A stretch of 64,000 bases of DNA from Methyloligellaceae bacterium (GTDB lineage: Bacteria > Pseudomonadota > Alphaproteobacteria > Rhizobiales > Methyloligellaceae). Numbering within the stretch: position 1 is the first letter of the stretch; each line of letters begins with the position of its first letter. The position numbers and the translations under genes were made by a program. The stretch covers positions 242,371-306,370 of the forward strand of contig CBDDHT010000001.1 of the NCBI GenBank assembly GCA_965228615.1. The letters run 5' to 3'. The notes beneath the pieces are model-generated. The model searched no databases. It saw nothing but the letters and a program-made list of their open reading frames with translations, and was not told where the DNA came from. Shown in pieces: positions 2,022-39,157 of the stretch.

Positions 2022-4913
2022 ATGAAAATCCGGCTGCGTTCGCTATCTACAAGATTCACTGTTGGTACAACTGCGACGGCAGCAGCGGCTTTTCTTTGCC
2101 TGATCGCACTTGTCGTCTATCAGCTCGAGCGAAGCATCGAGCGCCAGGCCCTGAAGCTGGAAGCGCTCTCGGATGCCAAGCTGGCGGACACGCTCGATGC
2201 CAATGTTCGACTGGCGGGAAAACGCCTTGAAGCCCTTTTCGAAGACACCAGTCGTCGCGTCAGTGCGATTGCGAGCCGTGCCGATACGATCACGGCCGCG
2301 TCCTCGCTCAATGTCGTTGCGATGTCCGAGATGCTCGGTCCTGCAGCGAAGAATGCTCAACTCGATGGAATTGTCGTAGTCAATCATGACGGAAAAGTCA
2401 TTGGCGCCTCCTCCGGACAGGCCGATCTGATTTCAATTGACCTACGCCTCTCTCGAGCCAAGTTTGCCGAACCGATTAAGCGGCTTCTGGCTAGAAACAA
2501 TCCTGCAGATCCGGAAATTTTCACCGATCTGATACCGGCCAATGAGTTCGGCGCACTGATTCCGAAGCCCGGAGAATTTGCAATCTCCCAAGTCGTCTTT
2601 GTACCGTTGTTCGATGACTTTGGAGAGGTATCAGGCGGTTTGATCGCACAGCGCCGGCTTCAGCGTCATGAAGCAACGCTTCTCGAATTTGCTGAAATTG
2701 GTTCGCTGAGTCTGGCGGTTCTCTTGAACGGGAAAGTGATTTCCGATGCGGCGTTTCTCGGCGATCTGTCCAATATCGGCAAGAGGCGTTCTAATTCAAA
2801 CATCACTGCCGATAGTCATCATGTGATCCGATGCAATACGATAATCGAGCCTCTTGAGATTTGTGCCCTAAAGCCCATCGAGGAACTCTATGCGACACAA
2901 TACGAGCTGACCAAGATCGGCAAGGAGGAAGAGCGTTCTCTTGTAAAGTCTCTCATAGTGTTTGGTCTCTTTTCGACGATCGTGTTCGTTCTCTTTTCAA
3001 TCGCCATCGCGCGTCAGATAACGCGACCGCTCACCCGTATCACTCGCGTCGTGTCTGGCGTCGCAGGCGGGGACTATGAGGCGGAAGTCGACAGCACCGA
3101 ACGTGCCGATGAGGTTGGAGACATTGCGCGTGCCGTTGTCTTGCTGCAGGACTCTGTGAAGGAGCGTGATAGTCTGCGCGAGAACATCCAGGTCAAGAAC
3201 GAAATTCTGAAGCGCAAAGAGGCGGAGCTTCGAACCCAGAACGGCCTGTTCGATGCTGCCCTGAACAACATGTCGCATGGATTGTGCATGTTCGGTCAGG
3301 ACCAGAAGTTGATCGTATCGAACAGGCGCTATCTGGAATTATTCGATCTGACATCCGAGCAAGTGTGCCCGGGTATGGAACTTTCGACGCTGATTGCCCT
3401 ACAGCATGTCGCCACTGCAGAAGACTCCGAAGACGATATCGCGCGACCCCCAGACGATGCCTGGCCGGTTAATAGGCGCAGTGCCGATACGCTTCGTCTG
3501 ACAAATGGCCGCATGATCTTGACGACCCGACAACCGCTTATCGGCGGCGGTTGGGTTGCGATATTCGAGGACGTGACCGAACGGCAACGTGCCCGGGACC
3601 GTCTCGCACATCTTGCGAAACATGATGGTCTGACGGACCTGCCAAACCGCATCCGGCTTCGCGAACATCTGACCGCAAGTCTGCTCCAGCGAGAGTCGGA
3701 AGGTGGAAACTTTGCGATCCTGTTTATGGATCTGGACGAATTCAAAACCGTGAATGACTCACTCGGCCACCACGTTGGCGATCAGCTCTTGTGCGAGGTG
3801 GCGGTCCGTCTCAAATCGATTACGACCGACAATCAGTTGGTCGTCCGATTGGGGGGCGACGAGTTTGCAATCGTCACAGAAATCCCGACTCGCGGAACCG
3901 ACGCTGCCCATCTCGCGCGCAAAAGCATCGATGCCGTGTCGCAGCCCTACATGATTGAAGATCATGAAGCTGTAATCAGTGCGAGTGTCGGCATCGCCAT
4001 GGTGCGGGAAGAAGGCCTGGACGGCGATGAACTCCTCCGTCAGGCCGATCTCGCCTTGTACCAAGCCAAGGCAGACGGCCGGAACACATACCGTTTCTTC
4101 GAAGAGGAAATGGGCACGCAGATCAACACCCGTCGTGAGCTGATTACCGATCTCCAGCGTGCAATGGAGAATGGTGAACTCGAGGCGTTCTTCCAGCCGC
4201 AGATAAACCTCGCCGATGATACGATTTCCGGTTTCGAAGCATTGATGCGCTGGCGCCACCCGGTTCGGGGTATGATCTCGCCGGCAGAGTTCATCCCGAT
4301 CGCCGAGGACACGGGGCTAATCGTTCAGATGGGTGAGTGGATCCTGCGCGAGTCGTGCAGGGTAGCGATGGACTGGCCTCTGCCGGTACGGGTCGCCGTC
4401 AACATTTCTGCGCGTCAGCTCAAGTCCAAAGGGTTTGCGTCGACTTTGATCAATACGCTTGCGACGACCGGGCTTCCCTCGAACCGTCTTGAGCTTGAAG
4501 TGACGGAAAGCGTGCTCCTCGGCGAGGACGACGAGACCTTATCGGCGCTGATGCGAACGAAGGCACTTGGTGTCAAGATCTCGATGGATGATTTTGGTAC
4601 CGGATATTCTTCGCTGAGCTGTCTGAGGAGTTTCCCCTTCGATAAGATCAAGATCGATCAGTCTTTCGTGCGATCTATGGCCGACAACGAGGAATCGGAA
4701 TCGATCGTACGTGCCATCGTGGAACTGGCGGATTCTCTCAAAATGACTACGACTGCAGAAGGCGTAGAAACGAAAGACCTGATTAAGCTTCTGAGAAGCT
4801 GTGGCTGCACGGAGGCGCAGGGCTACTACTTTGGCAGGCCGGCACCGGCAAGCGAGGCCAAACGACTTCTGCAATCAAATATGCAGCCACTGAGGATCGT
4901 TGCAAGTGGCTAG
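2022..4913 (+). CDS. membrane sensory diguanylate cyclase/phosphodiesterase (periplasmic region-TM-HAMP-PAS-GGDEF-EAL)
   Basis: N-terminal TM, a second TM (LIVFGLFSTIVFVLFSIAIA) followed by a HAMP-like segment. GGDEF motif RLGGDEFAIV. EAL motif FEALMRW plus DDFGTGYSSL and KIDQSF. Confidence 0.9.
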   Translation: MKIRLRSLSTRFTVGTTATAAAAFLCLIALVVYQLERSIERQALKLEALSDAKLADTLDANVRLAGKRLEALFEDTSRRVSAIASRADTITAASSLNVVAMSEMLGPAAKNAQLDGIVVVNHDGKVIGASSGQADLISIDLRLSRAKFAEPIKRLLARNNPADPEIFTDLIPANEFGALIPKPGEFAISQVVFVPLFDDFGEVSGGLIAQRRLQRHEATLLEFAEIGSLSLAVLLNGKVISDAAFLGDLSNIGKRRSNSNITADSHHVIRCNTIIEPLEICALKPIEELYATQYELTKIGKEEERSLVKSLIVFGLFSTIVFVLFSIAIARQITRPLTRITRVVSGVAGGDYEAEVDSTERADEVGDIARAVVLLQDSVKERDSLRENIQVKNEILKRKEAELRTQNGLFDAALNNMSHGLCMFGQDQKLIVSNRRYLELFDLTSEQVCPGMELSTLIALQHVATAEDSEDDIARPPDDAWPVNRRSADTLRLTNGRMILTTRQPLIGGGWVAIFEDVTERQRARDRLAHLAKHDGLTDLPNRIRLREHLTASLLQRESEGGNFAILFMDLDEFKTVNDSLGHHVGDQLLCEVAVRLKSITTDNQLVVRLGGDEFAIVTEIPTRGTDAAHLARKSIDAVSQPYMIEDHEAVISASVGIAMVREEGLDGDELLRQADLALYQAKADGRNTYRFFEEEMGTQINTRRELITDLQRAMENGELEAFFQPQINLADDTISGFEALMRWRHPVRGMISPAEFIPIAEDTGLIVQMGEWILRESCRVAMDWPLPVRVAVNISARQLKSKGFASTLINTLATTGLPSNRLELEVTESVLLGEDDETLSALMRTKALGVKISMDDFGTGYSSLSCLRSFPFDKIKIDQSFVRSMADNEESESIVRAIVELADSLKMTTTAEGVETKDLIKLLRSCGCTEAQGYYFGRPAPASEAKRLLQSNMQPLRIVASG

Positions 4914-34605: not shown

Positions 34606-35889
34606 ATGCAGACATCATTGATGATCGAGATCGGCGGACTGCTGATCATGAGTGCTGCGACACTCAAGGCCGCGGCGAGTGCGACAGCTCTGGCAGGACG
34701 ACGAATGAAGCTGTCTCGTCTCAACAAGGAATATATTCGGGAGTTCGATCGGCTGGCGGCCCGCAGTTTCCGAGCACAATCAGCCAAACGATTGACGCAT
34801 GAACAGGCGTGGCAGGGCACGCGCAAGTTTCGTGTCGAACGGAGAATTTACGAGGATCATGCGAAAAGCGTCTGCTCATTCTATCTTGTGCCTTACGATG
34901 GGCGGCCGCTTCCACCCTTCGAAGCGGGGCAGTTCCTCACCTTCAAGCTAACCGTGCCCGGACAAAAGCAGACGGTCGTTCGCTGCTATTCCCTGACCAG
35001 TAACCCGGCAGAGCAGCGTTACTATCGCGTGTCGATTAAGCGGATTGCGGGGGCGCCAGGCGATGCCGCAGTCCCGCCAGGGATCGCGTCGAACTACTTC
35101 CACGATCATCTGCGGGAGGGAGCCATTGTCGAGGCTTATGCGCCTTCAGGCGACTTCGTCCTCGATCGGAGTTCGGAAAAACCAATTGTCTTTATCGCCG
35201 GGGGGGTCGGGCTGACTCCGTTCATGAGCATGCTGCACCAGTTAAGTGCCGAAAATTCACCGAGGGAGGTGTGGCTCTTCTATGGTACGCGCAACAGCGG
35301 CGAGCATCTCATGCGGGGGCATCTCGAACATGCCCGCAAATATCATCCCAAATTCAGGACCGTGATTGCCTATAGCCGGCCAACCAAGGCCTGCCGGCGC
35401 GGCGTCGACTACGACGTCGCAGGTCATATAGGCGCTCCTCTCATGGAGCCTCTGCTGAAGGCGAGAGAGTGCGAGATCTATGTTTGCGGCCCTGGAGGGA
35501 TGATCGACACGGTCACACGGGATCTCGCCCGCCTCGGAATTCCGCAGGAGAATGTGAAGCTCGAAAGATTTGCCGAGGCGACGACAGGGCGTGAAGGCAC
35601 GCCTCCGCCCGATCCGAATGTGGAGAGTGGCGGTCGCTTCAAGGTTGCGTTCGTTCGGTCCGGCGTGACGGGAAACTGGTCCGCGGACGGCGGGTCTCTT
35701 CTTGAGTTCGCGGAAGCCGAGGGCATCAAGGCTCGTTGCGGATGCCGCCAGGGGATTTGCGGGATGTGCGCGACGCCGGTTCGGCAGGGCGAGGTCACTT
35801 ATCTCAGCCGTCCTGCAAAGGAACCGGCGCAGGGCACCTGCCTGCCGTGTATCACTCGGCCGAAGAGCGATTTGGTTTTGGAGCTGTAG
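34606..35889 (+). CDS. membrane-anchored FNR-type flavin reductase with C-terminal 2Fe-2S ferredoxin domain
   Basis: N-terminal TM. FAD/NAD modules (RCYSLTS, FIAGGVGLTPF). C-terminal cluster motif CRQGICGMC...C. Confidence 0.8.
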   Translation: MQTSLMIEIGGLLIMSAATLKAAASATALAGRRMKLSRLNKEYIREFDRLAARSFRAQSAKRLTHEQAWQGTRKFRVERRIYEDHAKSVCSFYLVPYDGRPLPPFEAGQFLTFKLTVPGQKQTVVRCYSLTSNPAEQRYYRVSIKRIAGAPGDAAVPPGIASNYFHDHLREGAIVEAYAPSGDFVLDRSSEKPIVFIAGGVGLTPFMSMLHQLSAENSPREVWLFYGTRNSGEHLMRGHLEHARKYHPKFRTVIAYSRPTKACRRGVDYDVAGHIGAPLMEPLLKARECEIYVCGPGGMIDTVTRDLARLGIPQENVKLERFAEATTGREGTPPPDPNVESGGRFKVAFVRSGVTGNWSADGGSLLEFAEAEGIKARCGCRQGICGMCATPVRQGEVTYLSRPAKEPAQGTCLPCITRPKSDLVLEL

Positions 35890-36004
35890 CGCCAACTGGG
35901 GAGGCTCGAAAGAGTCTCCCACTTTTTTGGCGGTTTATGGTTGCGTTGGGATCTCTGGTGGCAATCGCTGGATCGTGCCGTTTGGCTGGTGCGATATGGT
36001 TTGA

Positions 36005-36100
36005 TGGTGCCGTGGTTTTAGATTTGAGTTTATTTCGCTCACGGCTAATCCGCGCTTTGCGCGGGCCTCCGCGGGGGCGCCCTGACCGGGCGGCGGCCAC
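36005..36100. repeat. inverted partial copy of the 181-bp repeat unit
   Basis: gatttgagtttatttcgctcacggct..ggcctccgcggggg..cctgacc is the reverse complement of the unit core at 36240-36320. Confidence 0.85.
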
Positions 36101-36200
36101 TTGGCCTTGCCTCGCTGGTCGCTCGGTTATTCATGGTTCCATGAGAGATGGTGCCGTATGGCTGGTGCTATGCGGCACGATTTTCAGTGTGTCTGAGACA

Positions 36201-36720
36201 ACCGCGCCATAGTGGCGCGGCAAGCGCGACCGCGCGCCGGCCGGTCAGGCCGCCCCCGCGGAGGCCCGTGCCGTAGGCACGGAACAGCCGTGAGCGAAAT
36301 AAACTCAGATCTCCAACCCACGACACTATCCCACCGGACAGCACCGGCGTATTTCTCCAATGCCACACGTGAACAAGGATCACCGCGCCATAGTGGCGCG
36401 GCAAGCGCGACTGCGCGCCGGCCGGTCAGGCCGCCCCCGCGGAGGCCCGTGCCGTAGGCACGGAACAGCCGTGAGCGAAATAAACCCAGATCTCCAACCC
36501 ACGACACTATCCCACCGGACAGCACCGGCGTATTTCCCCAATGCCACACGTGAACAAGGATCACCGCGCCATAATGGCACGGCAAGCGCGACTGCGCGCC
36601 GGCCGGTCAGGCCGCCCCCGCGGAGGCCCACGCCAATGGCACGGAATAGCCGCGAGCGAAAAAACTCAATTCTCAAACCACGGCACCATCCCACCGTGTC
36701 GCACTGGCCAAAACAACCTC
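36201..36720. repeat. tandem array, about 2.9 copies of a 181-bp GC-rich hairpin-containing unit
   Basis: The anchor accgcgccata recurs at 36201, 36382 and 36563. Copies 1 and 2 differ at only a few positions; copy 3 is diverged and runs up to the stop of the decahaem gene. Confidence 0.9.
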
Positions 36721-36724
36721 CGCC

Positions 36725-39157
36725 TCACTTCTTCACGCCGGGAATCTTCGTCATCGTAATCGGCGTCGTGACGCCATCCACATGATAGGTGTGGCACAGA
36801 AGACAATCTTCGCGCGCGACATTGTTCCCATGGCATTCGCTACAGGTCTGTTTTTTTACGGGCTTGAAGTTGGAGCGAAAGTTCTTCGGATCATGCGCCT
36901 TGTAGCTGTCCATGAACCCCGCCTTGTCGTCCAGCGCGTGACAGGTCAGGCACCCGCTCTTGCCGGCAACCAGCCCGAAATGCGGTTCATGATTGAACGC
37001 CGTGAACTTGCTCGCCCGAGTGTTGAGCGATGACGGGCTCCAGTTGACGCGGCGACTCTCGCCTTTGCCCTGATCCACACTGTGGCATTTGGTACATTGA
37101 CCCTGAGCGTCCTTGCTGCTGAGGAGTGCGAATACGGGAGCGACAAGATCGAGCTCCTTAGGACCTGAAAGCCGCCCGGAGAAATCCAGCCAGGAGCGCA
37201 AGAATCCATCGGCATGTCCTGTGGGCTTATAAAGAATCGCGTAGTCCATCCGATACCAGCCACCGAACTCGGCCCAGCTCTCAGGATCGACGGTTGTCGT
37301 ATCACTGGCGCGATCGATCTCCGAGGGCTCTTCTCTTGCCTCGGTTTCTTGAGCGGCCGTTTCGGGCTTCGATTGTTGATCCGGTTCCGCCGCTTCAACC
37401 GGCTCGTCTTCGGGTTTATCGCGTTGTTCTGTGTCTTCGGCACTGTCCGTGTTCTCGGCAGGTCTGTCACCCTTGACGAGATTACCGAACGCATCGATCC
37501 GCCAACGTTCCGACGCCACTCTTGTGCGGTGGCGCGAGGGCTTGGTCTCTATCCGCGATTCTCTCTTAGGTGCTTCTTTGCCTGGCGTAGCAGCGGGCGG
37601 TGCGGTTGTGTCTTTGTCTGGCTCAGGCGTATCGGCGGCACCTGCCAGTCGGTCTCGCATTTCCTGGCCAAGATTGGGGAGCCATTCGCGCTGAGCGTTC
37701 ACGAAAACGTCGTGCGGCATATTAGCCGTCAGTTTCGCGATCAGGTCGGCGTCGATCTCGGCTTCGGACGCTGCTCCAATCTTGTTCAGCACTTGCGACA
37801 TCTTTGATGTCACGAGTGAATAAACAAGGGATTTGATTTCCCAAACCAGGCGTGTGACGGCTTTCAGTTCCAGATCCGATGCTTCGGTCAAATCGAGCAG
37901 GTCGAGATCAGCGATTGTCTGGAGCATCGCGCGTCGCTCTTCATCACGCCCTATGAGCAGCTTCATCAAAGGCGTTATTTCCGCCTCCGATTCAACTGGC
38001 CAAGTACCGATCTGCGCATTCTTCTCCTTCAATGTCTCGACATCGAGACCGGGAAGCGTAAGGAGCGCGATCCCTTTTGGCCCTGTGGCGCGGTCGTCAC
38101 CGACGATCTGGCCGAGATGGCATGAGGAACAAGCCTCGGCAAAGGGTTTGACGGCCATATGCCGGCCTTCCGTGCCGCTCGTGTGGCAATCGGCACAATC
38201 ACCGGGAACGGACTCTTTTTCTTTACCGCCTTTGGCTGTCAGTTCGGGGAAGTGCTTTCCGAAATGACCGCTATGATCGAACGCAATCCGCGTGCGCCGG
38301 CGGAACGGGAAATTGTCGAATTCGGGGTGGTCTTTGCTGAAACTGCTGAATTGCATCTTGTGGCAGGTATGACATCGCGCATCGGACATGGTCGTGAGAT
38401 CGACCATTTTTCCCTGATGCTCCTGATGGCACGAGGCGCAGAAGATGTCGCTTTTTCCAGAGGCGTCGATGGGGAACAAGGTGCTGGACAATCGTGCAAA
38501 GGCAGATGCGGACTTCGATGTAACCTCCGGCTCGAACGACCTACTGATCTGCACCAGCTGCGCTTCGCTCAATCCATGCGGTTTCAGCTCCGAGCCCGGC
38601 ATTTTGTGGCATGTCAGGCACGCCCGACTGTCTGCTGTTGAATCCGCTGTGGCCACAATTGAATGGATCCAGCCAAGCTGGCCGTCTCCGACATTCGTGT
38701 GGCAACTCTTACAGTCACCAACCGGGCCGTGTGCTGTCGTGAGCGGTCCTGGGCCCAGAATCTTCGGGTCTTGTGCATATGTTAAGAGCAGTGCGACGGC
38801 GCCCGCCGATACGGCTGCCACCCATTTCGCCACGAGTTCCCGCCTCGCACGGAGTGTGCGGACCGGCTTGCATGGCGGCTCGGCAATCCGGCAGCTTCCG
38901 TCCTCGTTGGGACCATCGGCACAGGGGCCGCCATCGGCGTCGCGGCGCTGGCAATGCCATTCCGAACCGCTCTTCTCGGGCTCACAGGCAAAGCGCGAAC
39001 CGCAGCGCCCACGAGCACTCGGTCCCGCTCGGCAGGCCTCGTTCGGACCGAGGCGCCCACACATCCAGGCGTGGACAGCGCGGTCCTGGCTCCTGGGGCC
39101 GGCCTTCGGTTTGCGGTTACGGAACAGCTGAGGAATACGCATAGACAGCTGCCACAT
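36725..39157 (-). CDS. membrane-anchored decahaem c-type cytochrome
   Basis: Ten CXXCH motifs (CKSCH, CLTCH, CASCH, CHTCH, CADCH, CSSCH, CTKCH, CLTCH, CSECH, CLLCH). One TM (VAAVSAGAVALLLTY) follows a Cys-rich N-terminal segment. Start is uncertain (39157, 39142 or 39064). Confidence 0.8.
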   Translation of the reverse strand: MWQLSMRIPQLFRNRKPKAGPRSQDRAVHAWMCGRLGPNEACRAGPSARGRCGSRFACEPEKSGSEWHCQRRDADGGPCADGPNEDGSCRIAEPPCKPVRTLRARRELVAKWVAAVSAGAVALLLTYAQDPKILGPGPLTTAHGPVGDCKSCHTNVGDGQLGWIHSIVATADSTADSRACLTCHKMPGSELKPHGLSEAQLVQISRSFEPEVTSKSASAFARLSSTLFPIDASGKSDIFCASCHQEHQGKMVDLTTMSDARCHTCHKMQFSSFSKDHPEFDNFPFRRRTRIAFDHSGHFGKHFPELTAKGGKEKESVPGDCADCHTSGTEGRHMAVKPFAEACSSCHLGQIVGDDRATGPKGIALLTLPGLDVETLKEKNAQIGTWPVESEAEITPLMKLLIGRDEERRAMLQTIADLDLLDLTEASDLELKAVTRLVWEIKSLVYSLVTSKMSQVLNKIGAASEAEIDADLIAKLTANMPHDVFVNAQREWLPNLGQEMRDRLAGAADTPEPDKDTTAPPAATPGKEAPKRESRIETKPSRHRTRVASERWRIDAFGNLVKGDRPAENTDSAEDTEQRDKPEDEPVEAAEPDQQSKPETAAQETEAREEPSEIDRASDTTTVDPESWAEFGGWYRMDYAILYKPTGHADGFLRSWLDFSGRLSGPKELDLVAPVFALLSSKDAQGQCTKCHSVDQGKGESRRVNWSPSSLNTRASKFTAFNHEPHFGLVAGKSGCLTCHALDDKAGFMDSYKAHDPKNFRSNFKPVKKQTCSECHGNNVAREDCLLCHTYHVDGVTTPITMTKIPGVKK

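Follow-up and report, generated by a model that had tools for sequence, protein, structure and literature searches.

What is the array of 181-bp repeats that lies, with an inverted piece beside it, between two cytochrome operons of a Methyloligellaceae bacterium, and does it belong to that locus alone? The array sits in an 835-bp intergenic gap of a 64,000-nucleotide stretch (C1:242371-306370 of assembly GCA_965228615.1), here called the window and always meant at its full length; the window genome (G000) has an assembly of 6.64 Mb with 57% G+C, and G001 is a genome of the same genus. An earlier note, written from the sequence alone, had offered as options a mosaic repeat resembling repetitive extragenic palindromes (REP) or Rhizobium-specific intergenic mosaic elements (RIME), an array derived from a miniature inverted-repeat transposable element (MITE), a structured RNA, or a barrier between the operons. 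Our analysis shows that the repeat is one member of a dispersed family of composite palindromes, non-coding and of the kind formed by REPs, bacterial interspersed mosaic elements (BIME) and REP doublets forming hairpins (REPIN), and that what fills the gap is not a locus-specific regulator. The intergenic mosaic option fits best, the family being dispersed, non-coding, palindromic and placed at the 3′ ends of genes.

Repeat searches bear out the positions given for the array. Tandem Repeats Finder reports it at 36201-36696 with a period of 181, 2.8 copies, 93% matches and a score of 859, and a repeat search of the window places in-register units at 36201, 36382 and 36563 with ungapped identities of 100, 98 and 62%, in agreement with the description of two near-identical units and a diverged third; with gaps allowed, unit 3 matches unit 1 at 87.5% identity across 136 bases. 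The 98% identity of units 1 and 2 indicates a recent local duplication, and a 25-bp direct repeat at a spacing of 176 bp (35971-35995 and 36147-36171) indicates that similar short sequences bound each unit, which may have provided a ready substrate for slippage. The segment 35981-36115 is an inverted match to each forward unit with a complementarity of 81-86%, and a terminal pair of 54 nt (35981-36034 and 36659-36712, 83%) brackets the whole element, the architecture of which over 35971-36712 reads b-centre-A-A-A. The inverted copy recorded by the earlier note at 36005-36100 therefore exists but is not partial, as it belongs to a complete B-type arm (35971-36146) that is the partner arm at every locus. 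Three repeated-peptide open reading frames (ORFs) on the minus strand, rightly suspected of being spurious (36168..36404, 36184..36585 and 36380..36694), are by-products of the repeat because its 181-bp period is not a multiple of 3.

Genome-wide BLAST with one unit as query, a check that the earlier note had proposed, returned 95 matches in 30 loci of the window genome, all of them non-coding; the unit is thus not unique to the locus, and these matches together with the repeat scores exclude a chance origin. With the unit and a minimal element as queries the family extends to 31 loci totalling 16.9 kb, two of which are short remnants and none of which exceeds ~1.2 kb, and its size is 29 copies with ~86 units. 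Read by anchoring on the 3′ block AGCCGTGAGCGAAA, all 29 of these copies and all 17 copies in G001 follow a single plan in which n reverse cores precede m forward cores, with n and m ranging from 1 to 5. The central cores lie ~253 bp apart at every copy and the tandem period is 177-181 bp. Two unit subtypes can be told apart, A with GCGC-GACC-GCGC, GGCC-GGTCA-GGCC and the hairpin CCGCGCC-ATAGT-GGCGCGG, and B with GGCC-AAGC-GGCC and GCCC-GGTCA-GGGC, which is without the first hairpin. One side of each element is all A and the opposite side all B, mixed sides having never been seen, and because every locus has both sides the inverted piece at the window is an obligatory B arm; the 181-bp array is the amplified A arm. 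Neighbours within an array share a median identity of 87.5% (up to 98%) compared with 77% for units of different loci, which indicates that arrays grow by local duplication at different times. The building block of the family is a unit of ~180 bp with an ~85-bp core carrying four or five short GC-rich stems, and the subtypes A and B are old and always stand head to head around a central hairpin.

The full ~370-bp composite was found in the window genome and in G001 (51 matches in the latter), whereas the ~85-bp core extends through the order Rhizobiales/Hyphomicrobiales, where it occurs in 25 of 41 relatives, in 96 of 301 sampled genomes and in 65 of 125 genera. Beyond the order, matches were seen in about 9 of 298 genomes sampled from the class, mostly as short pieces. 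Singlets, doublets and clusters of cores occur side by side across genomes, and doublets of A and B with a central hairpin recur in distant genomes (L003, L006/L036, L022 and L059), from which we conclude that the A/B pairing is old. Among the matches listed for the 24-base motif GGTCAGGSCGCCCNCGCGGAGGCC are many Mesorhizobium species, Roseibium, Stappia, Rhodobium, Oricola and Aquamicrobium, many metagenome-assembled genomes of Rhizobiaceae and Hyphomicrobiales, and one member of the Caulobacteraceae. Exact matches to this motif also occur in three actinobacterial records (L017, L038 and L058, from a Streptomyces sp., Pseudonocardiaceae and Streptosporangiales); with little or no wider similarity, they are probably chance matches in G+C-rich DNA.

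Elsewhere in the order the core also occupies transcribed sequence. In Mesorhizobium, Aquamicrobium and Oricola it lies within a helicase gene, between DEYQD and VGDDDQSIYGWRG. The PcrA/UvrD helicase of Mesorhizobium sp. ORS3359, a protein that matches the PcrA/UvrD profile in two stretches, carries the core between motifs II and III, where its in-frame reading is AEGRKPDRASAGQAAPAEASERSERAAVSENK. Stappia albiluteola carries the core in the same frame (GKRDRAPAGQAAPAEASERSERTAVS) as a C-terminal extension past the end of the UvrB profile. A genome of the same family as the window genome (G010, L005:566-805) has two tandem cores between the 23S (ending at 352) and 5S (834-948) rRNA genes, in sense orientation and hence part of the rRNA precursor there, and in L013 a tRNA gene directly adjoins a core. 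In the helicase gene, in UvrB and in the rRNA spacer alike, the unit stands in sense. In-gene copies were not seen in the window genome, where every copy is intergenic.

The earlier note had reasoned that the structure of the repeat, and not its sequence, is under selection, because a hairpin of the forward units (CGTGCC-GTA-GGCACG at 36267-36281, alongside CCGCGCC-ATAGT-GGCGCGG at 36202-36220, both found as described) is replaced by another self-complementary sequence, cgcgc-ttt-gcgcg, at the same position of the inverted arm. The replacement is real, reading CCGCGC-TTT-GCGCGG at the homologous place (Table 1), and compensatory change extends well beyond it. When 96 unit cores, drawn from the window, from G001 and from many distant genomes, were aligned and their helices laid out by hand, standard pairs make up 82.3% of pair cells compared with 75.2% in shuffled alignments, 166 cells compared with 66 are changed on both sides, and the covariation score is 0.157 compared with 0.064, none of 500 shuffles reaching the observed value in any of the three; sliding the partners by 1-3 columns gives scores of 0.015-0.064. 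These are counts of cells, and the independent compensatory events behind them are far fewer because the sequences are related and the A/B split yields many swapped cells. Stem H1 swaps CG and GC in two pairs (CG:60/GC:31 and CG:47/GC:42, 95% paired), with the variants GCCC/GGGC, GTGC/GCAC, GCAC/GTGC, GTCC/GGAC and GGGC/GCCC in distant genomes, and H2 does so in one (GC:61/CG:33, 99% paired). Because the variable loop of stem H4 obscures it in the alignment, this stem was counted without alignment and with free loops, which gave 24 distinct stems of at least 5 bp and a mean of 5.4 Watson-Crick pairs compared with 3.0 in shuffles. A local stem H3 across the conserved block was considered and dropped, as it conflicts with H2 and the L003-type double change is unsupportive in every register. 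Folding turns the minimal b-A element into a single long hairpin that includes local stems; its energy of -251.9 kcal/mol (z = -15.2) is to be expected of an imperfect palindrome. The structural half of the claim thus stands, with covariation above both controls, but the sequence is kept too: across 44 copies, 65 of the 171 columns of the inner segment never vary and another 93 reach a conservation of at least 90%, while the blocks CGCGGAGGCC and GCCGTGAGCG hardly change throughout an order.

Compensatory change in several stems across genera would also suit a multi-copy family in which each unit, or the whole element, is the gene of a structured small RNA, or in which it has a promoter of its own and acts in cis as an RNA domain. 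On the unit-sense strand H4 holds 16 G.U against 4 A.C pairs, of the 96 units 91 have a G.U and 5 a G-C in the candidate closing stem, and the three transcribed contexts described above all hold the unit in sense. We nevertheless consider an RNA family very improbable. The alignment-wide strand tally is confounded by misaligned H0/H4 columns, and a simple scan of 35700-36900, outside of which other promoter types fall, found no promoter-like site where 0.3 were expected. There is no terminator at the 3′ end of the unit, the copies hug stop codons and have no intergenic region of their own, and the arms lie on opposite strands, so that no single transcript can hold both arms in sense. Known RNA families did not match: Rfam 15 at a permissive threshold gave noise alone at the window locus (MIR820, E = 0.023, 29.9 bits against a threshold of 196 bits) and no match overlapping the core at six other loci, and six genomes gave no Rfam match at that threshold.

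The comparison of the two species of the genus, with orthology established by reciprocal flank matching (flanks of G001 copies in G000 and of G000 copies in G001), shows a family that is old and static, with the same sites occupied in the sister species and losses alone seen. Of the 29 sites of the window genome, G001 has a classifiable element at 25 and a collapsed one or a remnant at another two; unit numbers differ at most sites. Three sites appear empty (G000 C3:548154-548192, compared with G001 L067; G000 C4:2470443-2470501, compared with L074; and G001 L088, compared with G000 C4:894185), and all three retain a solo terminal segment of ~30 bp. No further solo termini were found in G000 in a search to 6 mismatches in 30, which identifies the three sites as footprints of loss rather than naive targets; on the same ground we rejected the view of the ~30-bp terminus as a pre-existing target of wide occurrence. 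Clean gains were not seen between the two genomes.

Inner segments of orthologues are 86-93% identical (mean 88.4%), much as are non-orthologous segments between the genomes (87.4%) and paralogues within them (88.4% and 86.9%). Copies of one genome do not group together, an observation that speaks against concerted evolution. In two flanking orthologous genes, third codon positions are 69.9% and 75.1% identical, and the slower evolution of the element suggests that the family is being kept. The simplest reading of these comparisons is that selection holds each copy near one consensus, a minority of free positions being saturated.

A selfish origin accounts for some of the same observations. 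On this view the family is a purely non-autonomous element, similar to MITEs or REPINs and without a function for the host, whose burst of spread predates the split of the two species; it would now be immobile and decaying, with hairpins kept by palindrome-templated repair and similarity maintained by gene conversion. The family is indeed dispersed and multi-copy with terminal inverted segments, its copies are star-like, each ~88% identical to every other, and in other genera the core sits in genes, in an rRNA spacer and beside a tRNA gene, as it would after random insertion; losses and collapsed forms occur, and one array carries an insertion of an IS1595-family insertion sequence (IS). Set against this, a terminal consensus is common to all loci but its outer edge is ragged and no target duplication is visible at element ends, the empty sites are deletion footprints, and gains between the species are lacking. 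No transposase gene lies in or beside any locus of the window genome, and no autonomous IS with the same ends was found there, all BLAST matches to the unit and minimal element falling in the 31 short non-coding loci. The Y1 transposase does not track the element, its sole copy in the window genome being flanked by other small repeats. Neutral relics should moreover have decayed further than 25 of 29 retained sites and a divergence far below that of third codon positions allow, and conversion should have clustered the copies by genome. We therefore regard a selfish element as improbable, and the MITE-derived option of the earlier note, which lacks a target duplication, a clean empty site and a transposase partner, is not upheld.

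Several individual sites deserve description in their own right. Collapsed elements (G000 C4:2085288-2085576, and L091 and L093 in G001) have their outer arms joined via one H4, so that a palindrome of 47 nt, TCGCTCACGGCTAATCCACGCCAACGGCGTGGATTAGCCGTGAGCGA, is perfect; deletion between two H4 palindromes may have produced them. At G001 L094:2351-3451, orthologous to the element at G000 C4:2951636-2952396, an IS1595-family transposase (DDE_Tnp_IS1595 and zinc ribbon) marks an insertion of ~3.6 kb in an A-type array. At G001 L071:2514-6498 the elements aB and bbbA bracket a 2.9-kb segment in a 4-kb block that is absent from the window genome (C3:1275536-1275540), having been either deleted from G000 or inserted into G001 as a cassette flanked by repeats. 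The bracketed segment encodes a Na/sulfate-citrate-type symporter and a glycerate kinase, for which reason the idea that it holds a transposase or special cargo was rejected. In place of the element at G000 C1:618093-618650, G001 (L082:545-2581) has a 678-aa ORF of unusual architecture that fuses a caspase domain (Peptidase_C14) with a periplasmic solute-binding domain (SBP_bac_8).

Orthologous elements differ not only in unit number but also in polarity. At the site orthologous to the window locus, G001 reads a-a-centre-B where the window genome reads b-centre-A-A-A, and the inner segment of the window matches that of G001 with an identity of 0.661 in the same orientation and 0.871 as the reverse complement. 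The cleanest flipped pair is G001 L077 and G000 C4:1532063-1532435, both minimal, in which the outer parts align in flank orientation with the locus-specific tail variant ATGGTCCAGCCAATC on the same side and the inner part aligns, near-perfectly, as the reverse complement only. The segment between the innermost blocks GGCCTCCGCGGGGGCG and CGCCCCCGCGGAGGCC measures 170-173 bp at every locus, and orthologous inner segments match either straight or reversed (~0.87-0.93 for the better orientation compared with ~0.65-0.72). Seven of the 25 comparable orthologous pairs are flipped, or about one flip per locus pair over ~25-30% divergence at third codon positions. The inner 171 bp thus occasionally flips in place, by recombination between the inverted arms; for flips this rare, ordinary recombination over ~100 bp of inverted homology suffices.

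The same observations might bring to mind a programmed inverton, in which a site-specific recombinase flips the inner 171 bp at the conserved block and so alters the expression of neighbouring genes. The segment is of constant length, inverted copies of the quasi-palindromic block bound it, and both orientations are seen at orthologous sites. However, the 7 flipped pairs of 25 fall below the 50% expected of a fast switch (one-sided binomial 0.022), the simple scan found no promoter-like site in the segment, the ~100 bp of inverted homology is enough for ordinary homologous recombination, and no recombinase gene is linked to any copy. This makes an inverton the least credible of the explanations considered, and a highly improbable one.

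Clues to a possible function come from placement. The gene neighbours of the 29 copies comprise ~13 convergent, 15 tandem and 1 divergent pair, counts that are approximate because the crude codon-usage ORF caller mis-scored the two genes at the window locus, which was corrected by hand. With at most 1 of 29 divergent where 25% are expected, the probability of so few is ~0.0025. Copies often start 10-60 bp past a stop codon, and a pattern scan found 5 weakly terminator-like sites at the window locus compared with 1.2 expected by chance, among them the central hairpin followed by GATTTTC on the plus strand and, antisense, the first hairpin of the A-type unit with TCCTTGTTCA. Copies that stand just after genes, and often between convergent ones, would meet transcripts from both sides, and because the element is symmetric, transcripts from either side can be expected to fold into stable stems. 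These stems might lessen read-through and protect upstream mRNAs at their 3′ ends, in the manner of the REP elements of Escherichia coli, the element acting short of an absolute terminator. Whether the family is retained by selection as a BIME/REPIN-like mosaic with a role at transcript ends is in our view an evenly balanced proposition. Its more specific form, a two-way transcript-end element that attenuates read-through and protects upstream 3′ ends, is suggested by analogy and put forward tentatively, as plausible.

A number of observations weigh against a role at transcript ends. No stem has a good U run behind it, and several copies lie beyond the gene's own intrinsic terminator, that of the reductase gene at the window included, and on that side are therefore perhaps little transcribed. 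One copy stands, in both species, between dnaE2 (NF004225) and an ORF that is putatively imuB-like by its C-terminal sequence; tolerated within what is normally a single operon, it is evidently not a strong terminator. The slow evolution of the family could partly reflect gene conversion among copies instead of selection at each site, and most of the covariation counted stems from a few splits between subfamilies, with far fewer independent events than cells. The strict conservation of the 16-bp quasi-palindrome, finally, points at least equally to a protein that binds DNA.

This last point leads to a role at the DNA level, in which the block GGCCNCCGCGGNGGCC and the cruciform-prone arms would bind a dimeric protein, gyrase or a nucleoid protein, relieving or insulating supercoiling between convergent or adjacent units as has been proposed for BIME-2 and gyrase in E. 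coli. The block is the most conserved part of the unit across the order, the CGCGGAGGCC columns being invariant in 96 units from many genera, and in the window genome it is nearly exclusive to the elements, with 65 occurrences inside and 4 elsewhere. Conservation of sequence beyond pairing, the enrichment of convergent gene pairs and the tolerance of either polarity, expected if the strand is immaterial, agree with such a role. Compensatory changes in three short stems, by contrast, are needless for a duplex site and fit a cruciform or single-strand folding, and copies in ORFs and in the rRNA spacer of other genera are hard to see as topological devices. We judge a DNA-level role to be unlikely, if far from negligible.

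A further possibility, which we also hold doubtful, is that the core with its CCGCGG-centred block is a functional module conserved across the order and read by a conserved host factor, perhaps a processing nuclease or a dimeric protein that binds DNA or RNA. Within the genus studied here it would have been built into symmetric, arm-amplifiable cassettes that serve as two-way transcript-end or topological insulators, and the family, if so, would be a domesticated repeat with a defined partner protein and not selfish debris. Taken together, the conservation patterns indicate that this "junk-like" DNA is probably retained and functional. It makes a good test case, offering fixed orthologous sites in two species, constraint, covarying stems and natural variation in arm number and polarity, and the sharply conserved 16-bp block suits a pull-down. 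The family also explains spurious repeated-peptide ORFs, assembly breaks and the unusual inserts that UvrD and UvrB proteins carry in Mesorhizobium and Stappia, and its unit number and polarity are ready markers for strain typing.

The features of the window locus are collected in Table 1. The left flank of the element is the ORF 34606..35889 (+), a FAD/NAD/2Fe-2S reductase, and the right flank the ORF 36725..39157 (-), a multihaem cytochrome, which confirms the stop codons at 35889 and 36725; only 13 bp separate the end of the element from the latter. The terminator stem and T run of the reductase gene are also present at the orthologous site of G001. Both flanking ORFs score below the cut-off of a codon-usage model built from the long ORFs of the genome, so that the cytochrome cluster may have atypical codon usage, possibly through horizontal acquisition.

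Table 1. Coordinates of features at the window locus (positions counted from the first base of the window)
Feature	Position	Strand	Remarks
Intrinsic terminator of reductase gene	35899..35930	+	Stem 35899-35920, then T run; between stop codon and element, outside the element
Whole composite element	35971..36712	.	One reverse B-type unit, inner segment, three forward A-type units
Left terminal segment GGCTGGTGCGATATGGTTTGATGGTGCCGTGG	35984..36015	+	Inverted relative to 36678-36709; solo copies persist where the element was lost
B-type unit core, reverse	36033..36146	-	3′ block reads TTTCGCTCACGGCT (36033-36046); stems GGCC-AAGT-GGCC and GCCC-GGTCA-GGGC
B-arm hairpin H4, CCGCGC-TTT-GCGCGG	36050..36064	.	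The hairpin that the earlier note saw as replaced
Conserved quasi-palindromic block, left copy GGCCTCCGCGGGGGCG	36064..36079	+	Left boundary of invertible inner segment
Inner segment, 171 bp	36080..36250	.	Type-specific halves of B and A arms plus centre
Central hairpin GTGCCGTATGGCTGGTGCTATGCGGCAC, then GATTTTC	36151..36178	+	Symmetry centre; weakly terminator-like for rightward transcription
A-type unit 1	36201..36381	+	Stems H0 36202-36220, H1 36224-36235, H2 36239-36251, H4 36266-36282
Conserved block, right copy CGCCCCCGCGGAGGCC	36251..36266	+	Right boundary of inner segment
A-type unit 1, candidate closing stem H5	36257-36261 pairs 36288-36292	+	
A-type unit 1, 3′ block AGCCGTGAGCGAAA	36286-36299	+	
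A-type unit 2	36382..36562	+	98% identity to unit 1
A-type unit 3	36563..36712	+	Older; ends in right terminal segment 36678-36709

A smaller hairpin repeat, CCCCGGATCAAGTCCGGGG (followed by CAGGCTC), is nested inside units of the large element, always within ..GGTCAG^G.., at C4:~3269450-3269500 in the window genome (in the B unit of the element C4:3269356-3269747) and at L067:2502-2613, L073:2493-2604 and L074:~2990-3020 in G001. About 31-42 copies of it occur across the window genome. The same hairpin lies directly upstream of a gene resembling REP-associated tyrosine transposases (RAYT) and may be the REP of that transposase. This gene, the only Y1 gene (IS200-like, RAYT-like) of the window genome, encodes 221 aa and lies at L007:1423-2088 (G000 C3:~537168-537833); its upstream flank holds two other small repeat types (..GGATTCCAGCCTTCGCTGGAATGACG.., 33 copies in the window genome) and not the large element.

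How does the family compare with known systems? The repeats of E. coli and its relatives known as REP and BIME are likewise dispersed, non-coding and palindromic, stand after genes or between cistrons, and combine two unit subtypes and linkers in variable unit number; the roles proposed for them include protection of mRNA 3′ ends and the binding of gyrase, integration host factor or Pol I. They are built, however, on one palindrome of ~35 bp in alternating units, whereas the present family has a unit of ~180 bp with an 85-bp multi-stem core, arranged as two same-sense arrays facing away from one centre. REPs are also usually species-specific, unlike a core that is conserved across an order; the likeness is one of description. 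REPINs share the inverted doublet that folds into one long hairpin, every locus here having one inversion centre, but the window element is about four times larger. Unlike REPINs, the family shows no association with RAYTs, which we considered and rejected: a Y1/RAYT gene is present in 4 of 12 element-rich relatives and in 7 of 29 others, so there is no co-occurrence, and the single Y1_Tnp gene of the window genome is flanked by other repeats. Terminal inverted repeats such as those of MITEs are present (54 nt, 83%), but the MITE reading was rejected for want of a target-site duplication, a clean empty site and a transposase partner.

Closer to hand, rhizobia and related bacteria commonly carry intergenic mosaic repeats, which are routinely masked from RNA and regulatory searches as being of "unknown function"; annotations of the RIME, Sm and AB/C repeats list dozens of copies, conserved in sequence and structure, as being "of unknown function" (PMC2573895, PMC2245857). 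The RIMEs, Sm-1 to Sm-5 and AB/C palindromes of Sinorhizobium meliloti resemble the present family as intergenic mosaic or palindromic repeats of the same broad bacterial group. A 441-bp query against 72,556 plasmid records found nothing on plasmids or chromids of Sinorhizobium, Rhizobium or Agrobacterium, the sole match, a weak one, being in Roseibium, and these three genera are absent among the 58 named matches listed for GGTCAGGSCGCCCNCGCGGAGGCC. A literature search for the element's own sequence returned unrelated matches only, and one for Rhizobiales palindromic elements and rhizobial REPIN/RAYT nothing relevant. An older description may nonetheless exist, the comparison with the Sinorhizobium repeats having covered plasmid and chromid replicons and the listed motif matches.

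Other families resemble the element in single respects. Rickettsia palindromic elements (RPE) also lie in frame inside conserved proteins, as the core does in PcrA/UvrD and UvrB, and in non-coding RNA contexts; they belong to a different order, all copies in the window genome are intergenic, and the likeness is one of behaviour. RPEs are not known to form head-to-head tandem arrays. The BOX elements of Streptococcus pneumoniae are modular with a variable number of internal tandem modules, A and C flanking the B repeats in one orientation, whereas the arrays of the window element are mirror-imaged. Enterobacterial repetitive intergenic consensus sequences (ERIC), or intergenic repeat units (IRU), of enterobacteria are long imperfect palindromes of >100 bp, transcribed with neighbouring genes, whose arms are not amplified as those of the window element are; for both BOX and ERIC the likeness is by description. 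Bru-RS1 and Bru-RS2 of Brucella, a related lineage, are palindromic repeats of ~100 bp and hot spots of IS insertion, and the G001 array interrupted by an IS1595-family transposase recalls them, but as a single insertion and not a demonstrated hot spot. The kind of repeat is thus well known from REP/BIME, REPIN, ERIC, BOX, RPE, RIMEs, Sm-repeats and AB/C palindromes, while the family is unlike MITEs and RAYT-linked REPINs and differs from BIMEs in unit size and arrangement. What sets it apart as unusual is the combination of mirror-image arrays of fixed A/B asymmetry, inversion in place, a signal of constraint, and an order-wide core that also occurs in frame in DNA-repair genes.

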